A stretch of 63,973 nucleotides of DNA, counting the filler. It is 12 parts of 12 records of this genome, joined end to end, with 100 filler letters (N's around TTAATTAATTAA, not from the genome) between each part and the next. Parts side by side here need not be neighbours in the genome. Positions count along the whole stretch, not along the records: positions 56,552 to 60,427 come from SRR15195285_2213; 11 more parts are not named here. The stretch is one strand, 5' to 3'. The position numbers and the translations under genes were made by a program. The notes under the pieces are model-generated. The model did no database searches. It saw only the letters and a list, made by a program, of their open reading frames with translations, and was not told where the DNA came from. Position 1 is the first letter of the stretch. Each line of letters begins with the position of its first letter. Shown piece after piece: positions 26,987-59,882 of this stretch.

Positions 26987-29900
26987 ATGGCGTCGCTTCG
27001 AGGGTCAGTCCGGGCAGTCCAGCTCGCAGGGCGGCAGTCGATGCTGCGGCAGTCCAACGCCCAGGAGGCGGTGACGCACGCGACGATTCTCGAGCAGTAT
27101 GGGGAGGCGCGACACGCGGGGATTCTACACAAGAAGGGGAAGGTCAACAAGTCATTCGCAGGGCGGTGGTGCGAGCTGCGGGAGACGGACGAGGGCGCTC
27201 AGATCGACTACTTCAAGAAGAAGGAAGGCGTGTGGAAGGGCTCCATCGTCTTCGACGGTGATGTGGAAGCTGCTGCAATCGAGGACGAAGGGCTGCCCGC
27301 ACACTGCTTCGCCATAAGTACCAAGAAGCGGGTGTACATACTGCAGGCGTCGAGCGACGAGGAAGTTGCGTTGTGGCTCGAGGAGATCAATGCCGTGGTG
27401 AGTGCAGTTAGGGAGCTGACCAACGCCAGACCAGCCGCCGACGACGACGCCAGCGCCGCCCTGGCTGCTGCGCCGTCGCCGGCACGTGGAGAGAGGGAGG
27501 AGCAAGAGCTGCCGCCGGAAAGGGAGCTTTGGGCTGGCGGAAAGACGGCGCAGCTTGGCTGGGAGTCGTACGAGTCAGTGCGCGCGGAGCTCGAAAGCGC
27601 ACGCGAGGATCGTCGGCTGCTGCTCAAGCACACTATCGAGCAGGCTCGACTTATGGATCAGGTCCGGAAGGTTGTACTCCGCATGACGAAGGACGAAGAC
27701 AGTGAGGAGTTGATGTCTGGAGCTGCGCATTTGATGCATTTGTGTGCGGTGGACCCCGACGCAGCAGAAATCAAGCCGAGCGTATTGCTGCCTGCTCAGG
27801 ACGGTGACGAGCTGGATCCGAACTTCGACAACGTCGCTGTCGAATCGCTGCTGCTCAATTTAAGTAGCAGTCCGCCCGTGCAGTGCAACCTTGACGACGA
27901 CCAGAAGTTCGGGAATAGGCCTTTAGAGGGCATTGGACGTTTGCCTTCGATCCACAAGTCCATAGCGACGGACGAGCTTGCGTGTAGTGACGGCGAAGAA
28001 GACGACCAGCTTGCCAGTCTGTGCACTGTACCAGAGTTTCGACAAGCGTTCTCGGAAGAGCAGATGCTGCTGGCTGGGTATGAAGCGCTTCTATGCTGCA
28101 CTGTTGTCAAGCCCCCGGATTTTGCGCAGCGTTTGACGGACGAGGCGTCGGCGCAACAACGGTTCGAAGAAGCGGGGCAAGAGGTGCTGGCAGCAGAACA
28201 AAGCCTGGCCGAGCTGAGTGCCGCAGATAAACCGGACAATGAGGCAATTGCCGACGCTGCTCAGGAGTTGGAGAGGAAGAAAGAGGCAGTACAAGCGGCT
28301 TCGGGTGCTGGTGCTGACACGGTGTCAGCTGAGGTGCTAGTTGCTCGGGACTATGTAGAGACAGTTCTGAAGCCGCAGTTCTCGCTCACGTCGCGCGCAC
28401 ACGGTGAGCTGGTGCAGGCGCTGTCTGTCTGCAGTGAGGACAATGACGAGGAGTGCGCTGCATCACTTGTCGGTGTTGGTGTGCCGAAAGCTCACCTGGC
28501 GCCGTTCAACGTCCTGCAGTGGCGGTGGCGTTGCGTCCGATTTCGTCGGCCGCCTGCAGACCTGGTCAATGGTGATGAGATATTCCGTAGTTTCAAGGCA
28601 TTTCGATCGTGGGTCGTACGCCAGCTGGCCATGGTCTTGTCAGGCTTACTTCTGCACTTGCAAACGCACGACGATCATGCATGGGAAGCACTTGACGGAA
28701 TGCAAATAGATGCCCCTACCGGCTCAGCTAGCACAGCTTCACAAGCGTTCAGCAGCGAAGACATGGTGTCTATGCTTGTTGCTACTGCACGGCTGATTAC
28801 AAGGAAGCTGGACTACGCGTCGGAATTCAGTCTTGATGATTACGATCGGGCCGTCGAGAAGATGTCGGCACTCATCATGACAGTACTAGCGCAGAAACCA
28901 GAAGGTGGTGCAGCGGATGCTGACCTAGACCCGTGGACGTCATTTCTACCGCTCAACTGCATGCTGTACGAGAAGCTCCTGAGCGTCTGTATGTCTTTCA
29001 ATCGTAGGGATAACGTTGCAGCAGAAGGAGGGGATGACTTGCTCTTGGAAGACGATGAGGGAGATGCCACTGATGTCAACTCTGCAGTTGTGAACTGCCT
29101 GAAGCAAACTTGGCAACCGCTTCGCCTGAGTCGGGCTTACCACGCAACCCTGGTTGTCAAGAACGCTCTAAATGCCTTCCGAAAGCAACCCGGAAAAGAC
29201 GTGCTAGTCCTTCTGCTGGATTCAGTTCCTGACCTGAAACCCATCGCTCTTGGAGCCAAGGGCTACACAACTGACGAGGTGGAAACCACACGAGCTGCTT
29301 TCAGAGAGCTCAAGATATATTGCCGATCACAGCTGAGTGATCTTTTCAGACACTTTGACTTGGAACAGACAGAAGAAGTCACAGTGTTATCGCAGCTGTA
29401 TTTCCACACTACAATAGTGCCAGACGCTGGGGAAAGTTGGGGCGATACAGCTCTTGATCCGGTTTTAGCCCTCACTGAAGCCATCCAGGAAAGTGTCAAG
29501 GCATACTATGCCCGATGCAAGGAGGAGGCTGAGAACGATAGTGATGATGAGTACGAAGAAGATGAGGAAAGCAAATTCATCAAACTGAGTCTACTTGCAG
29601 AGAAACTGGATGATGATCTCGACCAGCGGATATTCTCGACACTGGCTCGGTGCGTTAAAATTCCACACGTAGAAGGGGAGGAGGCTGCTGCGCCGCTACA
29701 CGACGACGATGCGTACCGACCACGCACAGACATGGACCCTGCAAGGGATTCTCTCGATATTGCCCTACAACAGCTGATACAGAATGCTCGGATCGACTGT
29801 GCTGGTGTCATCGCTAGTGCCCATGTCGACAGAAGCATGGCACCATGCATGCTGGCAATGTCACGGCTGGATGAGCGGCTTGTCGAACTGAGGCAGGACA

Positions 29901-32439
29901 CATGGCTAGGAGAGCAGGAACTGCACGATGGTGTCGACCCGCCTCAGTCGCTGCTACGACTAGATGCGCTGACTGCCCCAGTTGTTGGGCCGTGGCTTGA
30001 GGAGCAGAAGGAGGACTGGAGCGAATGGGTCACACGATCTCTCAAAACTGAGAAGTGGATACCAGCGGAAAATGGTGACAAGGTGCGTGCATAGAGCACG
30101 TGGACAGTAAGACAAATTTCCTGTTTCCCCAAGCGCTCATTTTATGATTGTGGAACGTGCCTTTGTCTTCAGGTGGATGGAGTCCCGGTGGCCTCCAGTG
30201 CGGTAGACATGTACAGTATTGTAACTTCAGCAATGATGAACTTCGAGGACTCAGGAATGCATGGTGCTACAAGCGCCAAACTACGAGAACAGTTCGCCAC
30301 TGCGATTGTCAACACCATGGAGGCATATGTGAACGAAATTGAGAAGAGTCTAGGCCACATGCCACGGCTTGAGGGCAGCTCAAGGGGCAAGCCCGTCGCG
30401 CCTGGCAGGATCAAGCTCGATAAGAAGCTTCCAAAAAAGCCGCGCGAGGAAACCACATTCACTGGCACGATCGAAGTATACCTTCGTACAGTCACATTAG
30501 ATGAGGTGATCGTGCGGCTCAATAGTCTGCATTATGTTCAGAAGCACGTGTTGGAGTCGTCTGAGTCCAGAAAAACAGAGCGAGAACGAAAGGATGCCCA
30601 ACAGGCCGAAAGCCCGCAAGCATTATCATCGGGTGTACGCAGGCGAGGCAGATATTCGATGGCGCCACCAGTGAAGCAAAAGCCAGTGTTTCGGGAGTTT
30701 GTCACGAAAGACGGCGCAGAAAAGGAACTGGGCCTGCTGACGGCGACGCTGGAGCAAGCCCTCCGCAGTGTTCGTGAGTATCTTTCTGCAAAGGTTGTGC
30801 TGTACGACCAACGCCAAAAGATCCTAGATGGGCTTTACATGGGATACCCAGCAAATGCCAACAAGCAAAGCCCAGGGATGGAACTTGACATGAACGATTT
30901 AGACGACCTCATGAGTACAATTATGTCGAACGTAGTGGAGGGTCAGCGCGACAGCACGTGCATGGAGCTTTACCGTAGATTCTTGGAGTCGCTCGAGCAT
31001 GTGGTCCTTTCGCATGATGAATACCGGATATATAACCAGAACTTGCCGTTTCAGGTAAACGCGGACATCGACAAACTGATGGAGTTTTTCCACTGTGATG
31101 GTGATGGTTTGTTGATGGAGGACCTGCAGCAGATGAAGATGGACCTTGATGCAATTCTCACCTTGTGCAGTTGGGCCTCAGAGACCCTTGCAGAAAAGTA
31201 TGTCGAGTTCCGGAAAGAAGAAGACGAACTAGGCTCGTTCAACAGTCGCGGCGGGATGGGAATGTATCATCTGCGCAGGTCTGACGCGATTGCTCTCATA
31301 TTGTCGCATCGGCGCGATGATGCGGCGGTGCAGTTCTTCAAAAAGACCATAGCCGAGGTCAAGAAGGGGACCAAAAAGATGAAAAAGGGCACGGGTGGAG
31401 TTGGATTAGAGGACCAGGCGAAAATCGAACAAATCGACGCGGCTAACAAGAGTAAGTGTCGTCGCAGCCAGCGCGCCATAATTGTGTCCTGTGAACAAAG
31501 CTGGCTTCTACTCGAACCAGCTGTCAACTTGACCTCTTGGGTTGGTCACTGCCTTCTGTTGTCTGTTGGATGGCAACTGCAGCTTTGACAGACCTGCAGA
31601 ATCCGATCAAAGCGGGCTGGATGTACAAAGAGGGCCATCGGCGCAAGACTTTCAAGAAGCGATATTTTGTGGTTTGGCCAAAAAACTTTCGCGAAATGGA
31701 TCCCCCATTGGATGCTCCAGTGCTGTTTTACTACGACAGTGATAAAGATGGAGAGGTGCGCGCAAAATTGTATTGATCTCGTCGAACGTTGTTGCATGCG
31801 AGTGTTGCCTGGCGCGCTTCCCACATTCGTACCATGTACACGCCTCAATTCCGGATGTATTTTACTGCTTTGCGCTTTTGCAGAAGCCAAAAGGCATAGT
31901 CTCCTTAGCGAATCTCAAGTGCCGACTCCCAAAATCTGAGCGCAAAATCAAGGACGACGACGGCAACGAGATCGGCAACTGCGCCTTCCGCGCTGATATC
32001 GACGGCGCTCCTGAGGGTCACAATAAGTTCATTTTCGCCACAGAGACAGCGGAAGACCTCATTCGTACGTTCATGCCAGTTTGCTTCTTGCTGATGTCGC
32101 TGCAGCTGGTTCGTCAGTTCGGCTTTCGCGATAAACAAGTCCACGGATGTTGTGGGAAGTGGTGTGGCTGATTGGACACGTCGCGTGCGTGCTTGTGCTG
32201 TCATGTTCTCAGCGTGGATGGAGGTGCTCGAGTCCGCGTCTTTGCACGAAGGCGCGCTAGGTAAACAGCTGCGCGACCGTCGTAAGACTGGTGTTGGTCG
32301 GCGTAGGGAGTCAGTGGTGGCACAGGGCGGAGTACCCTTGAACGAGGGTACTCCGCCGCCATCCGAGCGCATGGGTGACGTAGATCATGCCCAGCTCGCA
32401 CAGCTGGCAGCTTTAGAAGAGGAGGATGACGAGAGCTGA
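26987..32439 (+). CDS. Multi-exon PH + Munc13-homology (PATROL1/DUF810-like) + PH protein
   Basis: N-terminal PH (GILHKKG...RVYILQAS...WLEEIN). MHD-like WVTRSLKTEKW, ASSAVDMY, VRLNSLHYV and KVVLYDQR. C-terminal PH split over exons (AGWMYKEG...KKRYFV...WMEVL). Confidence 0.7.
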
Positions 32440-56551: not shown

Positions 56552-57172
56552 AGGACATCGAGGACGAGGCTGCCTACAACGAATTCCTCGACAGCTCTGA
56601 GGGATCCGACGATTCCGAAGAGGAAGACGCCGATGGCGCCGCCGCCGATGAGGAGCAGGACTCCGAGGAATCTGAGGACGAAGACGAAGACGATGACGAT
56701 GAGGATGAGGACAGCGACGCAGACGATGACTCGGTACGCCAGCCCAGCGCGCAGTGATCTCTTCCTCGCTAACTGCCACGCTCCGCCTCAGGAGAGCGAC
56801 GTCGAAATTGAAGACGACGAGGGCGAGGACGAGAATGAGGACGAAGATGAGGACAAGCAGGTCGATGACTACAGCAAGATGAAGCTGAAGGAGCTGAAGG
56901 AGCTGTGCAAGGAGAAGAGGCTTCCCGTCAAAGGCAAGAAGGACGAGCTCATCGCACGCCTGCAAGAGCACAGCGAGGTACGATCTTTTCTTCTTTTTTG
57001 TCCACCACTTCTCTACTTCGCAGCTGAAAGTGAGCTTGTGCAGGATACTGTTGACAACGACGAGAAGGAGGAAGAGGAGGAGGAGACTCCGCCGCCCGCT
57101 CCGAAGAAGGACAAGAAAAAGCGCAAGTCTGGTGACGACGGAAAGAAGAACAAAAAGAAGAAGCAGAAGTGA
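56552..57172 (+). CDS. 5'-partial acidic SAP-domain nuclear protein (host; 2 introns)
   Basis: SAP YSKMKLKELKELCKEKRLPVKGKKDELIARL. Introns at 56734-56791 (GCTAAC branch site) and 56978-57043. Lys-rich NLS-like tail. Confidence 0.8.
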   Translation, partial: RTSRTRLPTTNSSTALRDPTIPKRKTPMAPPPMRSRTPRNLRTKTKTMTMRMRTATQTMTRYASPARSDLFLANCHAPPQESDVEIEDDEGEDENEDEDEDKQVDDYSKMKLKELKELCKEKRLPVKGKKDELIARLQEHSEVRSFLLFCPPLLYFAAESELVQDTVDNDEKEEEEEETPPPAPKKDKKKRKSGDDGKKNKKKKQK

Positions 57173-57294
57173 GCTCGCCAGCTTGCCTAGAACACAGTAG
57201 AAACGGATGGAAATGGGCCCGGCGCCAACGTGTGTATTCCCGGGGGGAAGCCGTAAATGTACTATGTTCTCACAACTTCCTTCTGCTTGTACAC

Positions 57295-57570
57295 ATGCTT
57301 GTCAGCGCGTGCGAGTCCACAAGTGAAAATGAAGAGCCCACTGCCTCTGACAACGAATTCATTGATGATAGCGACGTAGAGTCCGATCATCCTGACAGCT
57401 ACGCCTCTGGAAGCGAAACTGAAGATCTCCTAAGCGAAGAAGAACTGACTGACATCGATGCGAACAACGTCGTGAGCTGTAAGCGTGCGCGCCGCCAGAC
57501 AGAGTTCTACGTAGATTCTGATGCAGAGGAGTTGATGGCAGAGAGCGATGACGACGGCACGCAAGGTTGA
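57295..57570 (+). CDS. Small acidic protein with a CHZ (Chz1/HIRIP3)-like motif
   Basis: 91 aa; SDNEFIDDSD and EELTDIDANNVVSCKRARRQTEFY. Confidence 0.5.
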   Translation: MLVSACESTSENEEPTASDNEFIDDSDVESDHPDSYASGSETEDLLSEEELTDIDANNVVSCKRARRQTEFYVDSDAEELMAESDDDGTQG

Positions 57571-58059
57571 TCACGACCAGTAGTCGCCGCCTGAACTTCG
57601 GTAGCTAACAAAGATCTCTCTGTCTGCCGGTATAGCTCTCGTAGCGCGCAGAATCGGCGTGGCGCGGCCTGCAGTGAAACGAGCATTGTTCACAAACGGT
57701 GTTCCCCTGGCATCGTTCGCATAGCGAGCGAAAGAGCTGTTGGTTCGGGCACCGTCGAAGCAATCTTGATCGTTCCTACAGACAACGTATTCGCCACGCC
57801 GCATGTTGTACTTTTGTCCGACCTGAGCTCTCGTCAGCCTCTCACCTGTGTAGTCAGCAATTTTAGCACCCGCGGGGAAGCGCCGTGAAGTGAAGAGGCC
57901 AAAGCCTCCGTTTTGCACCTGAGATGGACGTATTCGCAGGCCTTCCTGTGTTTTGGTGTGGATCCAGCACTTCGTACCCCGACACGTCCTGTTCCTACAC
58001 GGAGCGCCAGACTTAGTAGTAGCTACACAGCGATCGCACTCACGCACCGCTTGACTCAT
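57571..58059 (-). CDS. Minimal SET-domain methyltransferase with an N-terminal CCCH-type Zn finger
   Basis: CVATTKSGAPCRN...CWIH, then GFGLFT, YTGE, ARYANDA and EIFVSY...YW. Confidence 0.9.
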   Translation of the reverse strand: MSQAVRECDRCVATTKSGAPCRNRTCRGTKCWIHTKTQEGLRIRPSQVQNGGFGLFTSRRFPAGAKIADYTGERLTRAQVGQKYNMRRGEYVVCRNDQDCFDGARTNSSFARYANDARGTPFVNNARFTAGRATPILRATRAIPADREIFVSYRSSGGDYWS

Positions 58060-58077: not shown

Positions 58078-58512
58078 TTAGGCCTGAGCGATGTCTGCTA
58101 TCGCGCCCACGCCACGCGCTCCCAGAGAAACACCTTCCGCAGCAGCTGCAGCTCCTTCTAGGAAAGGTGTGGCTGCAGCACCAATTCCCGTAGCGGCGGC
58201 TAGACCGCCCGCCGTCGCAAGCCCACCTGCAACATTTTGAGAAACTGATGCAATTTCATCAGAAATGTTGCCGACCTTAGACCAATCGATTCCACGTCCG
58301 ATCATCTGTTGCATGTCGTCGTAGAACCCAGGTCCTTCTGGGCTTTTACGCACGTAGAACCTCATGCTTGTGGCGTACGGTACATCAGTAAAGAACCGCG
58401 TGCTGACCGGGTAGCCAGAGCCGCTCTGTTTCCTCATCAACTCATGGACAGACTTCTCTAAAGCTTTGTGTTGGGCACGCGTCAAGCAGACGTATGGCTG
58501 TCGCGTCGGCAT
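58078..58512 (-). CDS. Putative virion membrane-lytic/minor protein (adenovirus pVI-like organisation)
   Basis: QSGSGY and MIGRGI motifs, followed by amphipathic IDWSKVGNISDEIASV and a Gly/Ala-rich hydrophobic tail. Confidence 0.55.
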   Translation of the reverse strand: MPTRQPYVCLTRAQHKALEKSVHELMRKQSGSGYPVSTRFFTDVPYATSMRFYVRKSPEGPGFYDDMQQMIGRGIDWSKVGNISDEIASVSQNVAGGLATAGGLAAATGIGAAATPFLEGAAAAAEGVSLGARGVGAIADIAQA

Positions 58513-58541: not shown

Positions 58542-58964
58542 TCAGACGTGCTTTGCCTGATCAAGGCCCAGCTCGCTAGCGACCACTAGCCAAGCTAGAG
58601 AGCCTGCTCCACACCAGTTCTCCCTTACCTTTTGCTCCATGTCTCGCTCGCAGTCTTCTGCATCGATATGGGGAAACAGCTCGCTCACAGGGCGTCCATA
58701 AGAATCCCAAATGACGGTTCTATCGCCATCGCGATACAGTCCACACCAGTGAGTGCCAATAGTACCTTCAGGGTCAGTATTGACAATCATCGCTTCTGTC
58801 TCGTTACGCTGTGCCGGCACACGATCTGACGGAAAGACTCCAACGAAATCAGGCACGTGCTCAAGGCCGTATTCTCGTAAGACATCTTCGCCAGTCGTCT
58901 CGGCGCCTAGAATATCGATTATGTGGCGGAGTTGCCGCCAGAACAGCTTCTCCGCCGCGTGATC
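58542..58964 (-). CDS. Adenain-family (peptidase C5-like) virion maturation cysteine protease, with no AUG in frame
   Basis: FVGVFPSD, IVNTD...GTHW (His 58749-58751), WDSYG and EQ...WCG (Cys 58611-58613). The frame is open back to 58964: DHAAEKLFWRQLRHIIDILGAETTGEDVLREYG. Confidence 0.9.
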   Translation of the reverse strand, partial: DHAAEKLFWRQLRHIIDILGAETTGEDVLREYGLEHVPDFVGVFPSDRVPAQRNETEAMIVNTDPEGTIGTHWCGLYRDGDRTVIWDSYGRPVSELFPHIDAEDCERDMEQKVRENWCGAGSLAWLVVASELGLDQAKHV

Positions 58965-59882
58965 CTAGTGACAAGAACAACCATGGCCTTCACCACGCTG
59001 GCCAGTACGATAAGCACCGTTCCCAGCCATCTCAGAACAACCATGACCTGCACCAAGCATTGGCATCTGACGGTAGACAATCAGTGGCGCGATTCCTGTC
59101 CGACCGAGTCCAGTCCCTTGTGCAAAGATCCCAGCACCGTACTGCCGTGTACAGTTCTGAACCGCCTTGTTTCGTTTTCTCGAACTGCTTTCCCGTGCTG
59201 CCTGCGCCATACAAGCAGCCTTTGCTACTGGTCTAACGTTGGCCGCCTGCTGCCGTGACACCTGTGCCGCTTCTCGCTGGTACGCCGGTCGCGAAGGCAT
59301 CTGAACGTCACGCTGAGCGGCTTCTCTGCGTGTTTCGCGATACTGGCGCGCTTCGTTGACCTCTTGTCTCGCGGCGTTGGCACTTCTGGCTGCACTGACG
59401 ACGTTGCCTGACTGAGCCTGTTGCCTCGCGTTTTGAAGATTCTGTCCAACAACGGTTGCGCTGTGGGCAGCTTCGCGTGCATCTGTTGCTGTGCTGCGAG
59501 CTCTCGGTCCATACTTGGCAGCGCCCGTGGCCGCAATACCTGCGAGACCCGCCGCGGCTTTGTATTTGTTCTTGTGTTTCGCCCAGTGTTCTTTCAAACC
59601 CGAACCTTGCTGCGTACGAATCGAGATCTCGTCTGAGCTGGCGTCCAGTGAAGGTGGCAGGCCACGTTTTGTGATCATCGTCTTTTCTAGGAGCTGTCTC
59701 AACGTCAACTCCTCGGCTGGCTTCGATCCTGTCTTGCGTGTCCGCAACGGCAAGTTGAGCAACCAATTCTCTGGCAAATTTGGCGACATGTCCTTTGGGA
59801 GGCCAAAACCAGAACCCATCATGGCTACAATTTTTGTTGCCTGAGACGGCGAAATTGTACATCGACACTTCTTTTTGGCCAT
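58965..59882 (-). CDS. Basic core-like virion protein with repeated GxG motifs
   Basis: Arg/Ala/Gln-rich, about 305 aa from MAKKK. Motifs MMGSGF, QQGSGL, QYGAGI, AQGTGL, MLGAGH, MAGNGA and QRGEGH. Confidence 0.65.
   Translation of the reverse strand: MAKKKCRCTISPSQATKIVAMMGSGFGLPKDMSPNLPENWLLNLPLRTRKTGSKPAEELTLRQLLEKTMITKRGLPPSLDASSDEISIRTQQGSGLKEHWAKHKNKYKAAAGLAGIAATGAAKYGPRARSTATDAREAAHSATVVGQNLQNARQQAQSGNVVSAARSANAARQEVNEARQYRETRREAAQRDVQMPSRPAYQREAAQVSRQQAANVRPVAKAACMAQAARESSSRKRNKAVQNCTRQYGAGIFAQGTGLGRTGIAPLIVYRQMPMLGAGHGCSEMAGNGAYRTGQRGEGHGCSCH

Follow-up and report, generated by a model that had tools for sequence, protein, structure and literature searches.

How could a protease be made when its reading frame has no start codon of its own and lies in frame behind the stop codon of another gene? 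This question is raised by a stretch of DNA of 63,973 nucleotides (nt) (positions 1-63973, hereafter the window), which is composed of 12 separate contigs joined by N44-TTAATTAATTAA-N44 linkers. The junction in question, between a gene for a core-like protein and one for an adenain-like cysteine protease, sits on a 3.9-kb contig (56552-60427) that is cut at both ends and comes from a fragmented assembly. We interpret the element as a polinton-like or virophage-like double-stranded DNA (dsDNA) virus module of a marine eukaryote, known from this 3.9-kb contig, on which capsid genes were not identified. Comparison of the junction with that of its relatives makes it fairly probable that programmed UAG readthrough gives rise to a low-abundance core-protease fusion. 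The features needed for this argument are listed below (ORF, open reading frame; aa, amino acids).

59882-58968, minus strand: core-like ORF of 305 aa, stop TAG
59016-59060, minus strand: clustered [M]xGxG motifs, MLGAG and MAGNG, found by motif scan
58967-58965, minus strand: UAG stop, the proposed readthrough site, followed by G; TAG in 3/3 DNA copies
58957-58964, minus strand: 8-nt spacer between the UAG and the hairpin
58925-58956, minus strand: extended RNA hairpin, predicted from folding and synonymous-site conservation
58920-58922, minus strand: ATA codon, the rival start site, aligned to ATG in L002, to GTG then ATG in L001 and to the first M of P0002
58964-58545, minus strand: adenain-like protease frame of 140 codons without an N-terminal ATG, stop TGA at 58544-58542

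The minus strand at the junction reads ...GGT TGT TCT TGT CAC TAG GAT CAC GCG GCG GAG AAG..., and past the TAG the frame stays open until the TGA at 58544-58542. The 36 codons at 58964-58857 (DHAAEKLFWRQLRHIIDILGAETTGEDVLREYGLEH) contain no Met, and the next codon is the GTG at 58856 that was used by the ORF track. The first-pass annotation, made from the sequence alone, had pointed to the in-frame TAG before the protease, to the 36 sense codons without AUG between this stop and the GTG, and to the fact that this is the only co-oriented junction lacking an AT-rich spacer; these three observations were confirmed from the sequence at 58967-58965, by translation and on the contig, respectively. 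Each of the other co-oriented junctions on the contig has an A/T-rich spacer and its own ATG, and the spacers at 59916-59883, 58541-58513 and 58077-58060 lead to the core gene (ATG at 59882), the small gene that follows the protease and the SET gene, respectively.

Is the stop codon itself conserved? We found eight close proteins (64-86% identity), all on short ENA/JGI contigs. At the DNA level, the comparison comprised the window and two metagenomic contigs, L001 and L002, whose proteases are 64-70% identical to that of the window. When these copies were aligned, a check that the first-pass annotation had proposed, the in-frame TAG turned out to be kept in 3/3 available DNA copies (at 916-918 in L001 and 176-178 in L002), and the next bases are GA in all three. 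The junction reads TAG GAC GGC GCG GCG GAG... in L001 and TAG GAG ACA GAG GCG GAG... in L002; in both, ...C-G-C-x TAG closes the upstream ORF, and the protease continues that frame without a gap. These copies are far apart, as outside the junction identical residues share a codon in only ~38% of cases (window versus either relative). The stop of the protease differs among the loci (TGA/TAA/TGA), as does that of the small gene (TAA/TGA), and the retention of TAG-G at the end of the core gene in 3/3 copies while the neighbouring stops vary was counted for readthrough. In addition, the C-terminus of two further core-like proteins, P0159 and P0160, coincides in position with that of the window protein. 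Three of the gene calls (P0005, P0006 and P0009) start with M where their relatives have V, which suggests, at the level of the predicted proteins, that these members might also lack an upstream ATG.

The conservation of the TAG bears on two explanations in which no recoding would be involved. One is that the junction is an artefact or belongs to a dead gene, i.e., that a base was mis-assembled or that an integrated copy has decayed; a mutation or assembly error had been listed as an alternative by the first-pass annotation. The contig is indeed short, the assembly is fragmented and the junction bases are without covering reads, but the same TAG and the same arrangement recur in L001 and L002, which are independent and divergent metagenome contigs, no defect interrupts the protease frame, whose catalytic H, D, Q and C are kept, and RNA-library contigs match the core, protease and small genes in part (as presence only). 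We consider this explanation scarcely credible. The other is that TAG is a sense codon here, because of a reassigned code or a suppressor tRNA, and that core and protease are one gene. In its favor, the frame is open through the TAG in the three copies, and PMC6905037 describes stop reassignment in some protists. On the other hand, the viral ORFs of the contig, five in number, contain a single in-frame TAG, whose site is conserved; the ATG-ORFs of at least 250 aa in the window (n=21) end in TAG (8), TGA (8) or TAA (5); in-frame ORF pairs split by one stop have TAG in 4 cases versus TGA in 12; no tRNA gene was found in the window; and the conserved hairpin described below would be needless. A sense TAG is thus extremely improbable. 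Pyrrolysine-type UAG decoding was also considered, and was dropped in view of the eukaryotic setting.

What could allow ribosomes to pass this stop? The DNA alignment shows a block of near-identity immediately past the TAG. Folding of the 3' context, which had also been proposed as a check, revealed a conserved hairpin that begins at nt 9 past the stop. The three copies share the spacer length of 8 nt (GAUCACGC, GACGGCGC and GAGACAGA), and their spacers contain 4/8, 5/8 and 7/8 purines, respectively (purine-rich only in L002). The hairpin is composed of a lower stem of 7 base pairs (bp), GGCGGAG/CUCCGCC (9 bp in L002), an internal loop, an apical stem of 4-5 bp and a tetraloop (UCUG in the window, UUCG in L002). 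The same fold was predicted for all three copies, as the minimum free energy or centroid structure, and in the consensus fold.

Synonymous sites point to constraint on this segment beyond the encoded peptide. Within the 16 codons after the TAG, codons are identical at 8/9 identical residues between the window and L001 (99/254 elsewhere; Fisher p = 0.004) and at 7/8 between the window and L002 (39/106 elsewhere; Fisher p = 0.007), and three-way identity at third positions is 10/16 in this segment versus 36/169 elsewhere (p = 0.0009). The GC content at third codon positions of the window copy is 0.81 in the 16-codon segment versus 0.50 in the rest of the protease. When the same peptide was re-coded synonymously with each gene's own codon usage, 0/2000 (window), 23/2000 (L001) and 13/2000 (L002) re-codings were as stable as the native hairpin. 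Among the inverted repeats, the hairpin ranks I2 of 30 in the window, I1 of 13 in L001 and I5 of 17 in L002, and no comparable inverted repeats were found after other stop codons. A role as a transcription 3'-end signal, following the 'hairpin rule' of giant viruses, was rejected for that reason. Searches for the hairpin pattern in viral_contigs gave 0 matches, and the contig was without Rfam hits at E <= 1.

Such features resemble a known type of readthrough signal. According to Firth & Brierley (PMC3542737), type III readthrough involves UAG-G, an 8-nt spacer and a 3' structure, and readthrough-stimulating structures typically start ~8 nt 3' of the stop. Since the junction shows UAG-G, an 8-nt spacer and a 3' stem-loop, readthrough is proposed here. 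Of the features of this type, we found a UAG, a G after the stop in 3/3 copies, a predicted structure ~8 nt on and a start-less, constrained downstream frame, the last with the limit that L001 and L002 carry an ATG at codons 15-16. The whole proposed recoding signal is compact, spanning ~45 nt.

Are the codons behind the UAG part of the protease? The AlphaFold2 (AF2) model of the protease has a mean predicted local distance difference test (pLDDT) score of 91.7, and the best six Foldseek matches in the PDB are all adenovirus protease chains (4pie, 4wx4, 1avp, 4piq, 1nln and 4ekf; probability 1.00, query template modelling score 0.52-0.61, E 3.6e-4 to 3.2e-3), followed by poxvirus I7L, African swine fever virus pS273R and Ulp/SENP-type enzymes. 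Counting from the first codon past the TAG, the residues H72, D87, Q111 and C118 do not vary in an alignment of 21 sequences; the His is encoded at 58751-58749 and the Cys at 58613-58611, with the Gln 7 residues before the Cys, and we take their catalytic and oxyanion roles to be those of their counterparts in adenain. The window protease had no hit at E <= 0.1 in Pfam, including Peptidase_C5, and the L004 protease of a more distant clade scored 19.1 bits against Peptidase_C5, below the cut-off of 21.3. As judged from the modelled fold, the window protease is adenain-like (clan CE), and not a member of Pfam C5.

A profile of this protease family retrieved 11,643 proteins at E <= 1e-3 from a library of 1.84 billion proteins. 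The N-terminal consensus of the relatives, MxxxAExxYxxxLxxxxxxLGxxxT, corresponds to DHAAEKLFWRQLRHIIDILGAETT in the window, and the post-TAG segment is fully aligned in 16/18 relatives outside the clade. In the AF2 model, post-TAG residues 2-18 form a helix with pLDDT 93-95. The resemblance of the post-TAG peptide to the N-terminal region of such proteases, which the first-pass annotation had noticed, was thereby borne out, since this peptide lines up with the N-terminal helix in relatives that start with a Met of their own. Six relatives with the AE motif have this Met 2-10 residues before it, which is the place of the TAG in the window clade, and the post-TAG codons were therefore taken as translated. 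The codons after the UAG encode a conserved part of the protease.

This helix is also what decides against separate translation of the protease from a start 14-15 codons past the TAG, which the window copy would have lost by a change from ATG to ATA, leaving it defective or dependent on weak ATA initiation. A start-type codon does occur at the same aligned codon of the relatives: codon 15 after the TAG is ATG in L002 and GTG, followed by ATG at codon 16, in L001, and P0002 is called from an M there, while the window has ATA (58922-58920). The resulting protease would be about as long as some members of the family (P0011 and P0024), and integrated viral copies are often defective (PMC10120064). 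However, a start at codon 15 would delete most of the helix that 16/18 relatives keep, and the downstream start was for this reason disfavored against readthrough. Moreover, the position of the Met shifts (codon 15 in L002, codon 16 in L001) at a site that is merely hydrophobic (I/V/M), a GC hairpin of 7-9 bp ending 2 nt before it should make a poor context for scanning, and there is no promoter-like A-rich spacer before it, unlike before every other gene of the contig. The TAG in 3/3 copies and the kept frame would be left unexplained, and the hairpin would have to serve elsewhere, e.g., in messenger RNA 3'-end formation or in the control of that start. Taken together, separate initiation at this position is unlikely. 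Homologues with an ATG, which the first-pass annotation had named as evidence that would tell against readthrough, were thus found only in part: two relatives have an ATG, but at 14-15 codons past the TAG, where its use would cut off the conserved helix.

Could translation instead begin without AUG just past the stop, e.g., at a conserved CUG (codon 7), or by termination-reinitiation at the UAG? All three copies do have CTG as codon 7, and the stop adjoins the beginning of the protease. Nevertheless, this CUG sits in the apical stem and downstream of the conserved AE, and the codons before the AE include no near-cognate start (GAT CAC GCG, GAC GGC GCG and GAG ACA GAG in the three copies). As for reinitiation, in known stop-start systems an AUG overlaps or abuts the stop, and there is no such AUG here. 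We regard non-AUG initiation or reinitiation as quite improbable. A further possibility is splicing or trans-splicing, with the AG of the TAG as the 3' acceptor, the AUG and a few residues provided by an exon further upstream, and the core gene contained in the intron. YAG/G is present in all three copies, eukaryote-type genes occur on other contigs of the window, and a very short first exon would do, given that the Met of the relatives is just 2-10 residues before the AE. On the other hand, there is no pyrimidine tract in L001 or L002, the ATG of the core gene is, in our reading, not followed by a conserved GT donor, and splicing would need no common frame of core ORF and protease, and no hairpin 8 nt past the stop. 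No spliced joint was seen either, though the RNA contigs do not reach this site. We consider splicing very improbable as the source of the AUG.

Programmed readthrough therefore remains our preferred reading, and the following mechanism could be envisaged. The protease would have no translation start of its own. Most ribosomes translating the abundant core-like protein would terminate at the UAG (58967-58965), and a minority would decode it, helped by the 3' G and the stable hairpin 8 nt downstream. By analogy, the UAG would be decoded by a near-cognate tRNA, with insertion of Gln, Tyr or Lys. The product would be a core-protease fusion of ~446 aa, which could fix a low ratio of protease to structural protein and could also bring the protease into the assembling particle, where [M]xGxG sites, 17-27 residues ahead of the junction, might allow its self-release. 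We infer the occurrence and efficiency of readthrough, the incorporation into particles and the self-cleavage alike.

What is known about the upstream partner of this putative fusion? The core-like protein (305 aa) starts with MAKKKCRCTISPSQ, the start at 59882 being set by alignment with MAHGKKTRCTIS of L001, and ends with ...GHGCSCH. It is basic and rich in Ala, Gln and Arg, with a tail rich in Cys and His; it had no match in Pfam or PHROGs and nothing usable in Atlas. Against viral_contigs, it matched only L027 and L028, which were discarded as spurious tailed-phage loci sharing the word WAKHKNKYKA, and genome_contigs gave one doubtful 71-aa frame in a bacterial metagenome-assembled genome (L026). 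The clustering of GxG motifs upstream of the TAG, reported in the first-pass annotation, was reproduced by a scan for [MIL]xGxG: MLGAG (59060-59046) and MAGNG (59030-59016) are located 27 and 17 residues before the junction. MLGAG/MIGAG is common to the window and L001, and MAGNG/MAGRG to the window and L002; similar motifs (MMGSG/MLGAG) occur near the N-terminus of the core-like protein. The upstream [M]xGxG motifs presumably fit the adenain cleavage consensus (M/I/L)XGX-G, and it is plausible that they are candidate sites at which the protease releases itself.

In an AF2 model of the readthrough junction, with the TAG as Q, the 50-residue core tail is disordered (pLDDT <50 for residues 12-51) and the protease domain starts right at the stop position; a tail predicted to be disordered suits a flexible linker. 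The Cys/His-rich tail is conserved (window 58968-59045, minus strand, GHGCSEMAGNGAYRTGQRGEGHGCSCH; L001 841-915; L002 98-175; L004 4920-4956), and its counterpart in a more distant, AT-rich clade is GGCM[RH]C. This tail may bind metal or act as a cofactor of the protease. No cofactor-like docking of the Cys-rich tail was seen in the AF2 junction model.

Do more distant relatives also lack a protease start? We identified an AT-rich sister clade (L003, L004, L005, L006 and L009; contigs of 6-15 kb) with ~28% identity to the window protease, in which L003 and L004, from two samples, are identical over 1,600 nt. The gene order in this clade is a Pox_A32-type ATPase, a gene of 345-390 aa ending in GGCM[RH]C..KKKx* and the protease; in L005 the Pox_A32 ATPase beside the homologous gene pair was detected with E 3.8e-13. 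Here the protease is in the -1 frame and overlaps the upstream gene solely across an A9-A10 run (L003/L004 4941-4959, L005 4944-4959, L006 60-78 and L009 2767-2797), with A9 in L003, L004 and L006 and A10 in L005 and L009. In L003/L004, L005 and L006, a TAA in the protease frame directly precedes the A-run, and the earliest in-frame ATG comes 30 codons into the frame, within the conserved GVFMRD motif; a usable ATG in the -1 frame is present in L009 only. Three of the four distinct AT-rich sequences would thus need a -1 ribosomal shift or polymerase slippage, with the A-run as a candidate site. No conserved structure was found 3' of the A-run in this clade (consensus -2.6 kcal/mol). An LSPSQ-like N-terminal motif lines up between the upstream proteins of the two clades. 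In 12 more typical relatives (L007, L014-L021 and L023-L025), the protease has an A/T-rich spacer and its own ATG.

Among the best 150 profile hits, eight proteins (P0022, P0027, P0138, P0070, P0081, P0086, P0103 and P0114) have the protease behind an N-terminal extension of 60-260 residues, which means that this family does make the protease as the C-terminal part of a larger protein. P0022 and P0027 differ in their N-terminal domains and share the same joint to the protease, ...GG(G/S)...HLIYDTLL; the N-terminal part of P0022 contains a GHSLG lipase-like motif, and P0081 has a hydrophobic Gly/Ala-rich segment ahead of the protease. The core-protease polyprotein by UAG readthrough that the first-pass annotation had proposed is supported comparatively, by the conserved TAG, the hairpin, the homology of the helix and the sister clade without a protease ATG. 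A broader claim would be that this polinton-like lineage never gives its maturation protease a start, and that the enzyme is made only as a recoded C-terminal extension, via UAG readthrough in the GC-rich clade or via a -1 shift or slippage at A9-A10 in the AT-rich clade; we see about even chances for it.

Several observations weigh against readthrough. The DNA copies are three in number and belong to a single lineage, and L002 (ATG) and L001 (GTG-ATG) carry possible starts 14-15 codons past the TAG, where P0002, the closest protein relative, is also called; a separately initiated, shorter protease is possible in L001 and L002, also alongside readthrough. Two relatives lack all (P0011) or half (P0024) of the N-terminal helix. 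The stem pairs are invariant, so that covariation is nearly nil: compensatory changes occur in 3/23 consensus pairs, and the only one within the hairpin is pair 19/36 (A.A to G-U to C-G). Support for the hairpin was for this reason drawn from synonymous sites instead. When the 73-nt folds were compared with dinucleotide shuffles, L002 alone gave a strong z value (-3.70), those of the window (-0.96) and L001 (-1.57) being modest. Within the close clade, 0/251 longer candidates are a single-ORF core-protease fusion. The upstream proteins of the two clades gave no significant BLASTP match, and homology between them is not claimed. Finally, when DNA runs X2 and X3 and RNA runs X12 and X15 were compared with the window at 85% likeness, no contig of these four runs spanned 58789-59025.

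How does the proposed arrangement relate to known systems? Gammaretroviruses set their protease levels via UAG readthrough. The gag-pro-pol junction of gamma- and epsilonretroviruses, as described in PMC3542737, resembles that of the window in its UAG-G, in the 8-nt distance from the stop to the 3' RNA structure and in the stability of the latter; the structure predicted here is an extended hairpin, as listed there for epsilonretroviruses, whereas that of murine leukaemia virus is a compact pseudoknot. In both cases the enzyme is a minor C-terminal extension of an abundant structural protein, as it would be here. Unlike in retroviruses, the element is dsDNA virus-like, its readthrough is predicted from sequence, and the extension is a clan CE cysteine protease instead of an aspartic protease and polymerase. 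With adenain (MEROPS C5) and the cysteine proteases of virophages and polinton-like viruses, the window protease shares the fold and the conserved His, Asp, Gln and Cys, but it has no start of its own and continues the frame of a gene that ends in UAG (in the AT-rich clade, the protease follows an A-run in the -1 frame); at 140 aa, it is also much shorter than adenain (~204 aa).

Fusions of protease and scaffold in herpesviruses and tailed phages likewise link the protease to an internal structural protein, deliver it at a set ratio and are self-cut. In these fusions the protease is N-terminal and the ratio is achieved via a nested in-frame gene or a second promoter, whereas the fusion proposed here would have the protease at its C-terminus and its ratio determined by recoding. 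Examples of -1 frameshifting or slippage at A-runs are retroviral gag-pro and potyvirus P3N-PIPO. The AT-rich relatives, and not the window, resemble these systems in having a -1 protease frame over an A9-A10 run, and differ in that no conserved downstream structure was found.

Recoding by programmed readthrough or frameshifting counts as a strategy of RNA viruses and retroelements, and eukaryotic dsDNA viruses normally provide each gene with its own promoter and AUG. Full-text literature searches gave no report of recoding in polinton-like viruses or virophages. The mechanism is of a known kind, and its use by a dsDNA virus-like element for an adenain-like protease appears to be new. If the lineage-wide claim is true, these viruses would have, so far as these searches show, the first programmed readthrough signal known from a eukaryotic dsDNA virus, and they would parallel the Gag-Pro strategy of retroviruses, with both of the retroviral solutions in use. 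If the junction works as proposed, small DNA viruses or integrated elements of marine protists would set the dosage of their protease, and probably its packaging too, by recoding, which would imply convergence with retroviruses. It would also mean that gene callers cut these proteases at an internal GTG/ATG or at Met 15, with the helix and the fusion absent from databases.

The remaining genes of the 3.9-kb contig are as follows.

60423-59917, minus strand: 3' part of an ORF of 168 codons, stop TGA
58512-58078, minus strand: ORF of 144 aa with a Gly/Ala-rich tail, stop TAA
58059-57571, minus strand: SET-domain ORF, stop TGA (Pfam SET, E 2e-8)
56633-57172, plus strand: SAP-domain ORF

Pfam gave 0 matches for the core-like protein, the protease, the 168-aa ORF and the small ORF, and PHROGs gave 0 matches for 8 proteins; second copies of the genes of this contig were absent from the window (tblastn). 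Contigs from RNA-library seawater samples match parts of three genes (58095-58334, 58549-58720 and 59162-59464), and none of them bridges the junction. Run X15 (oligo-dT) matches the small gene with 0 differences, and X12 the protease and core genes with 4 and 2 differences, respectively, which indicates presence in an RNA library only.

The small gene after the protease (58078-58512, minus strand) is also kept in L002 (646-1114). The Gly/Ala-rich C-terminal half of its product is probably membrane-active, and its GC-rich Ala/Gly codons are the source of the other large inverted repeats of the contig. The SET-domain ORF (minus strand, 57571-58059) abuts the plus-strand SAP-domain ORF and an acidic ORF (56633-57570) with zero spacer; these ORFs may be part of the viral element or of a host flank.

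Genes that face each other across the linkers of the window are not genomic neighbours. The other contigs carry eukaryote-type genes, including those for the actin family, FYVE, PH, PATROL1-like TPR and FAD-binding domain proteins. On the plus strand at 26987-31588, a PH-domain ORF of 1035 aa ends in a TAG at 30092-30094 and is followed in the same frame by a PATROL1-like TPR ORF of 459 aa, whose Pfam match begins at profile position 150. These two ORFs are probably one gene with an intron, or else represent another in-frame stop.

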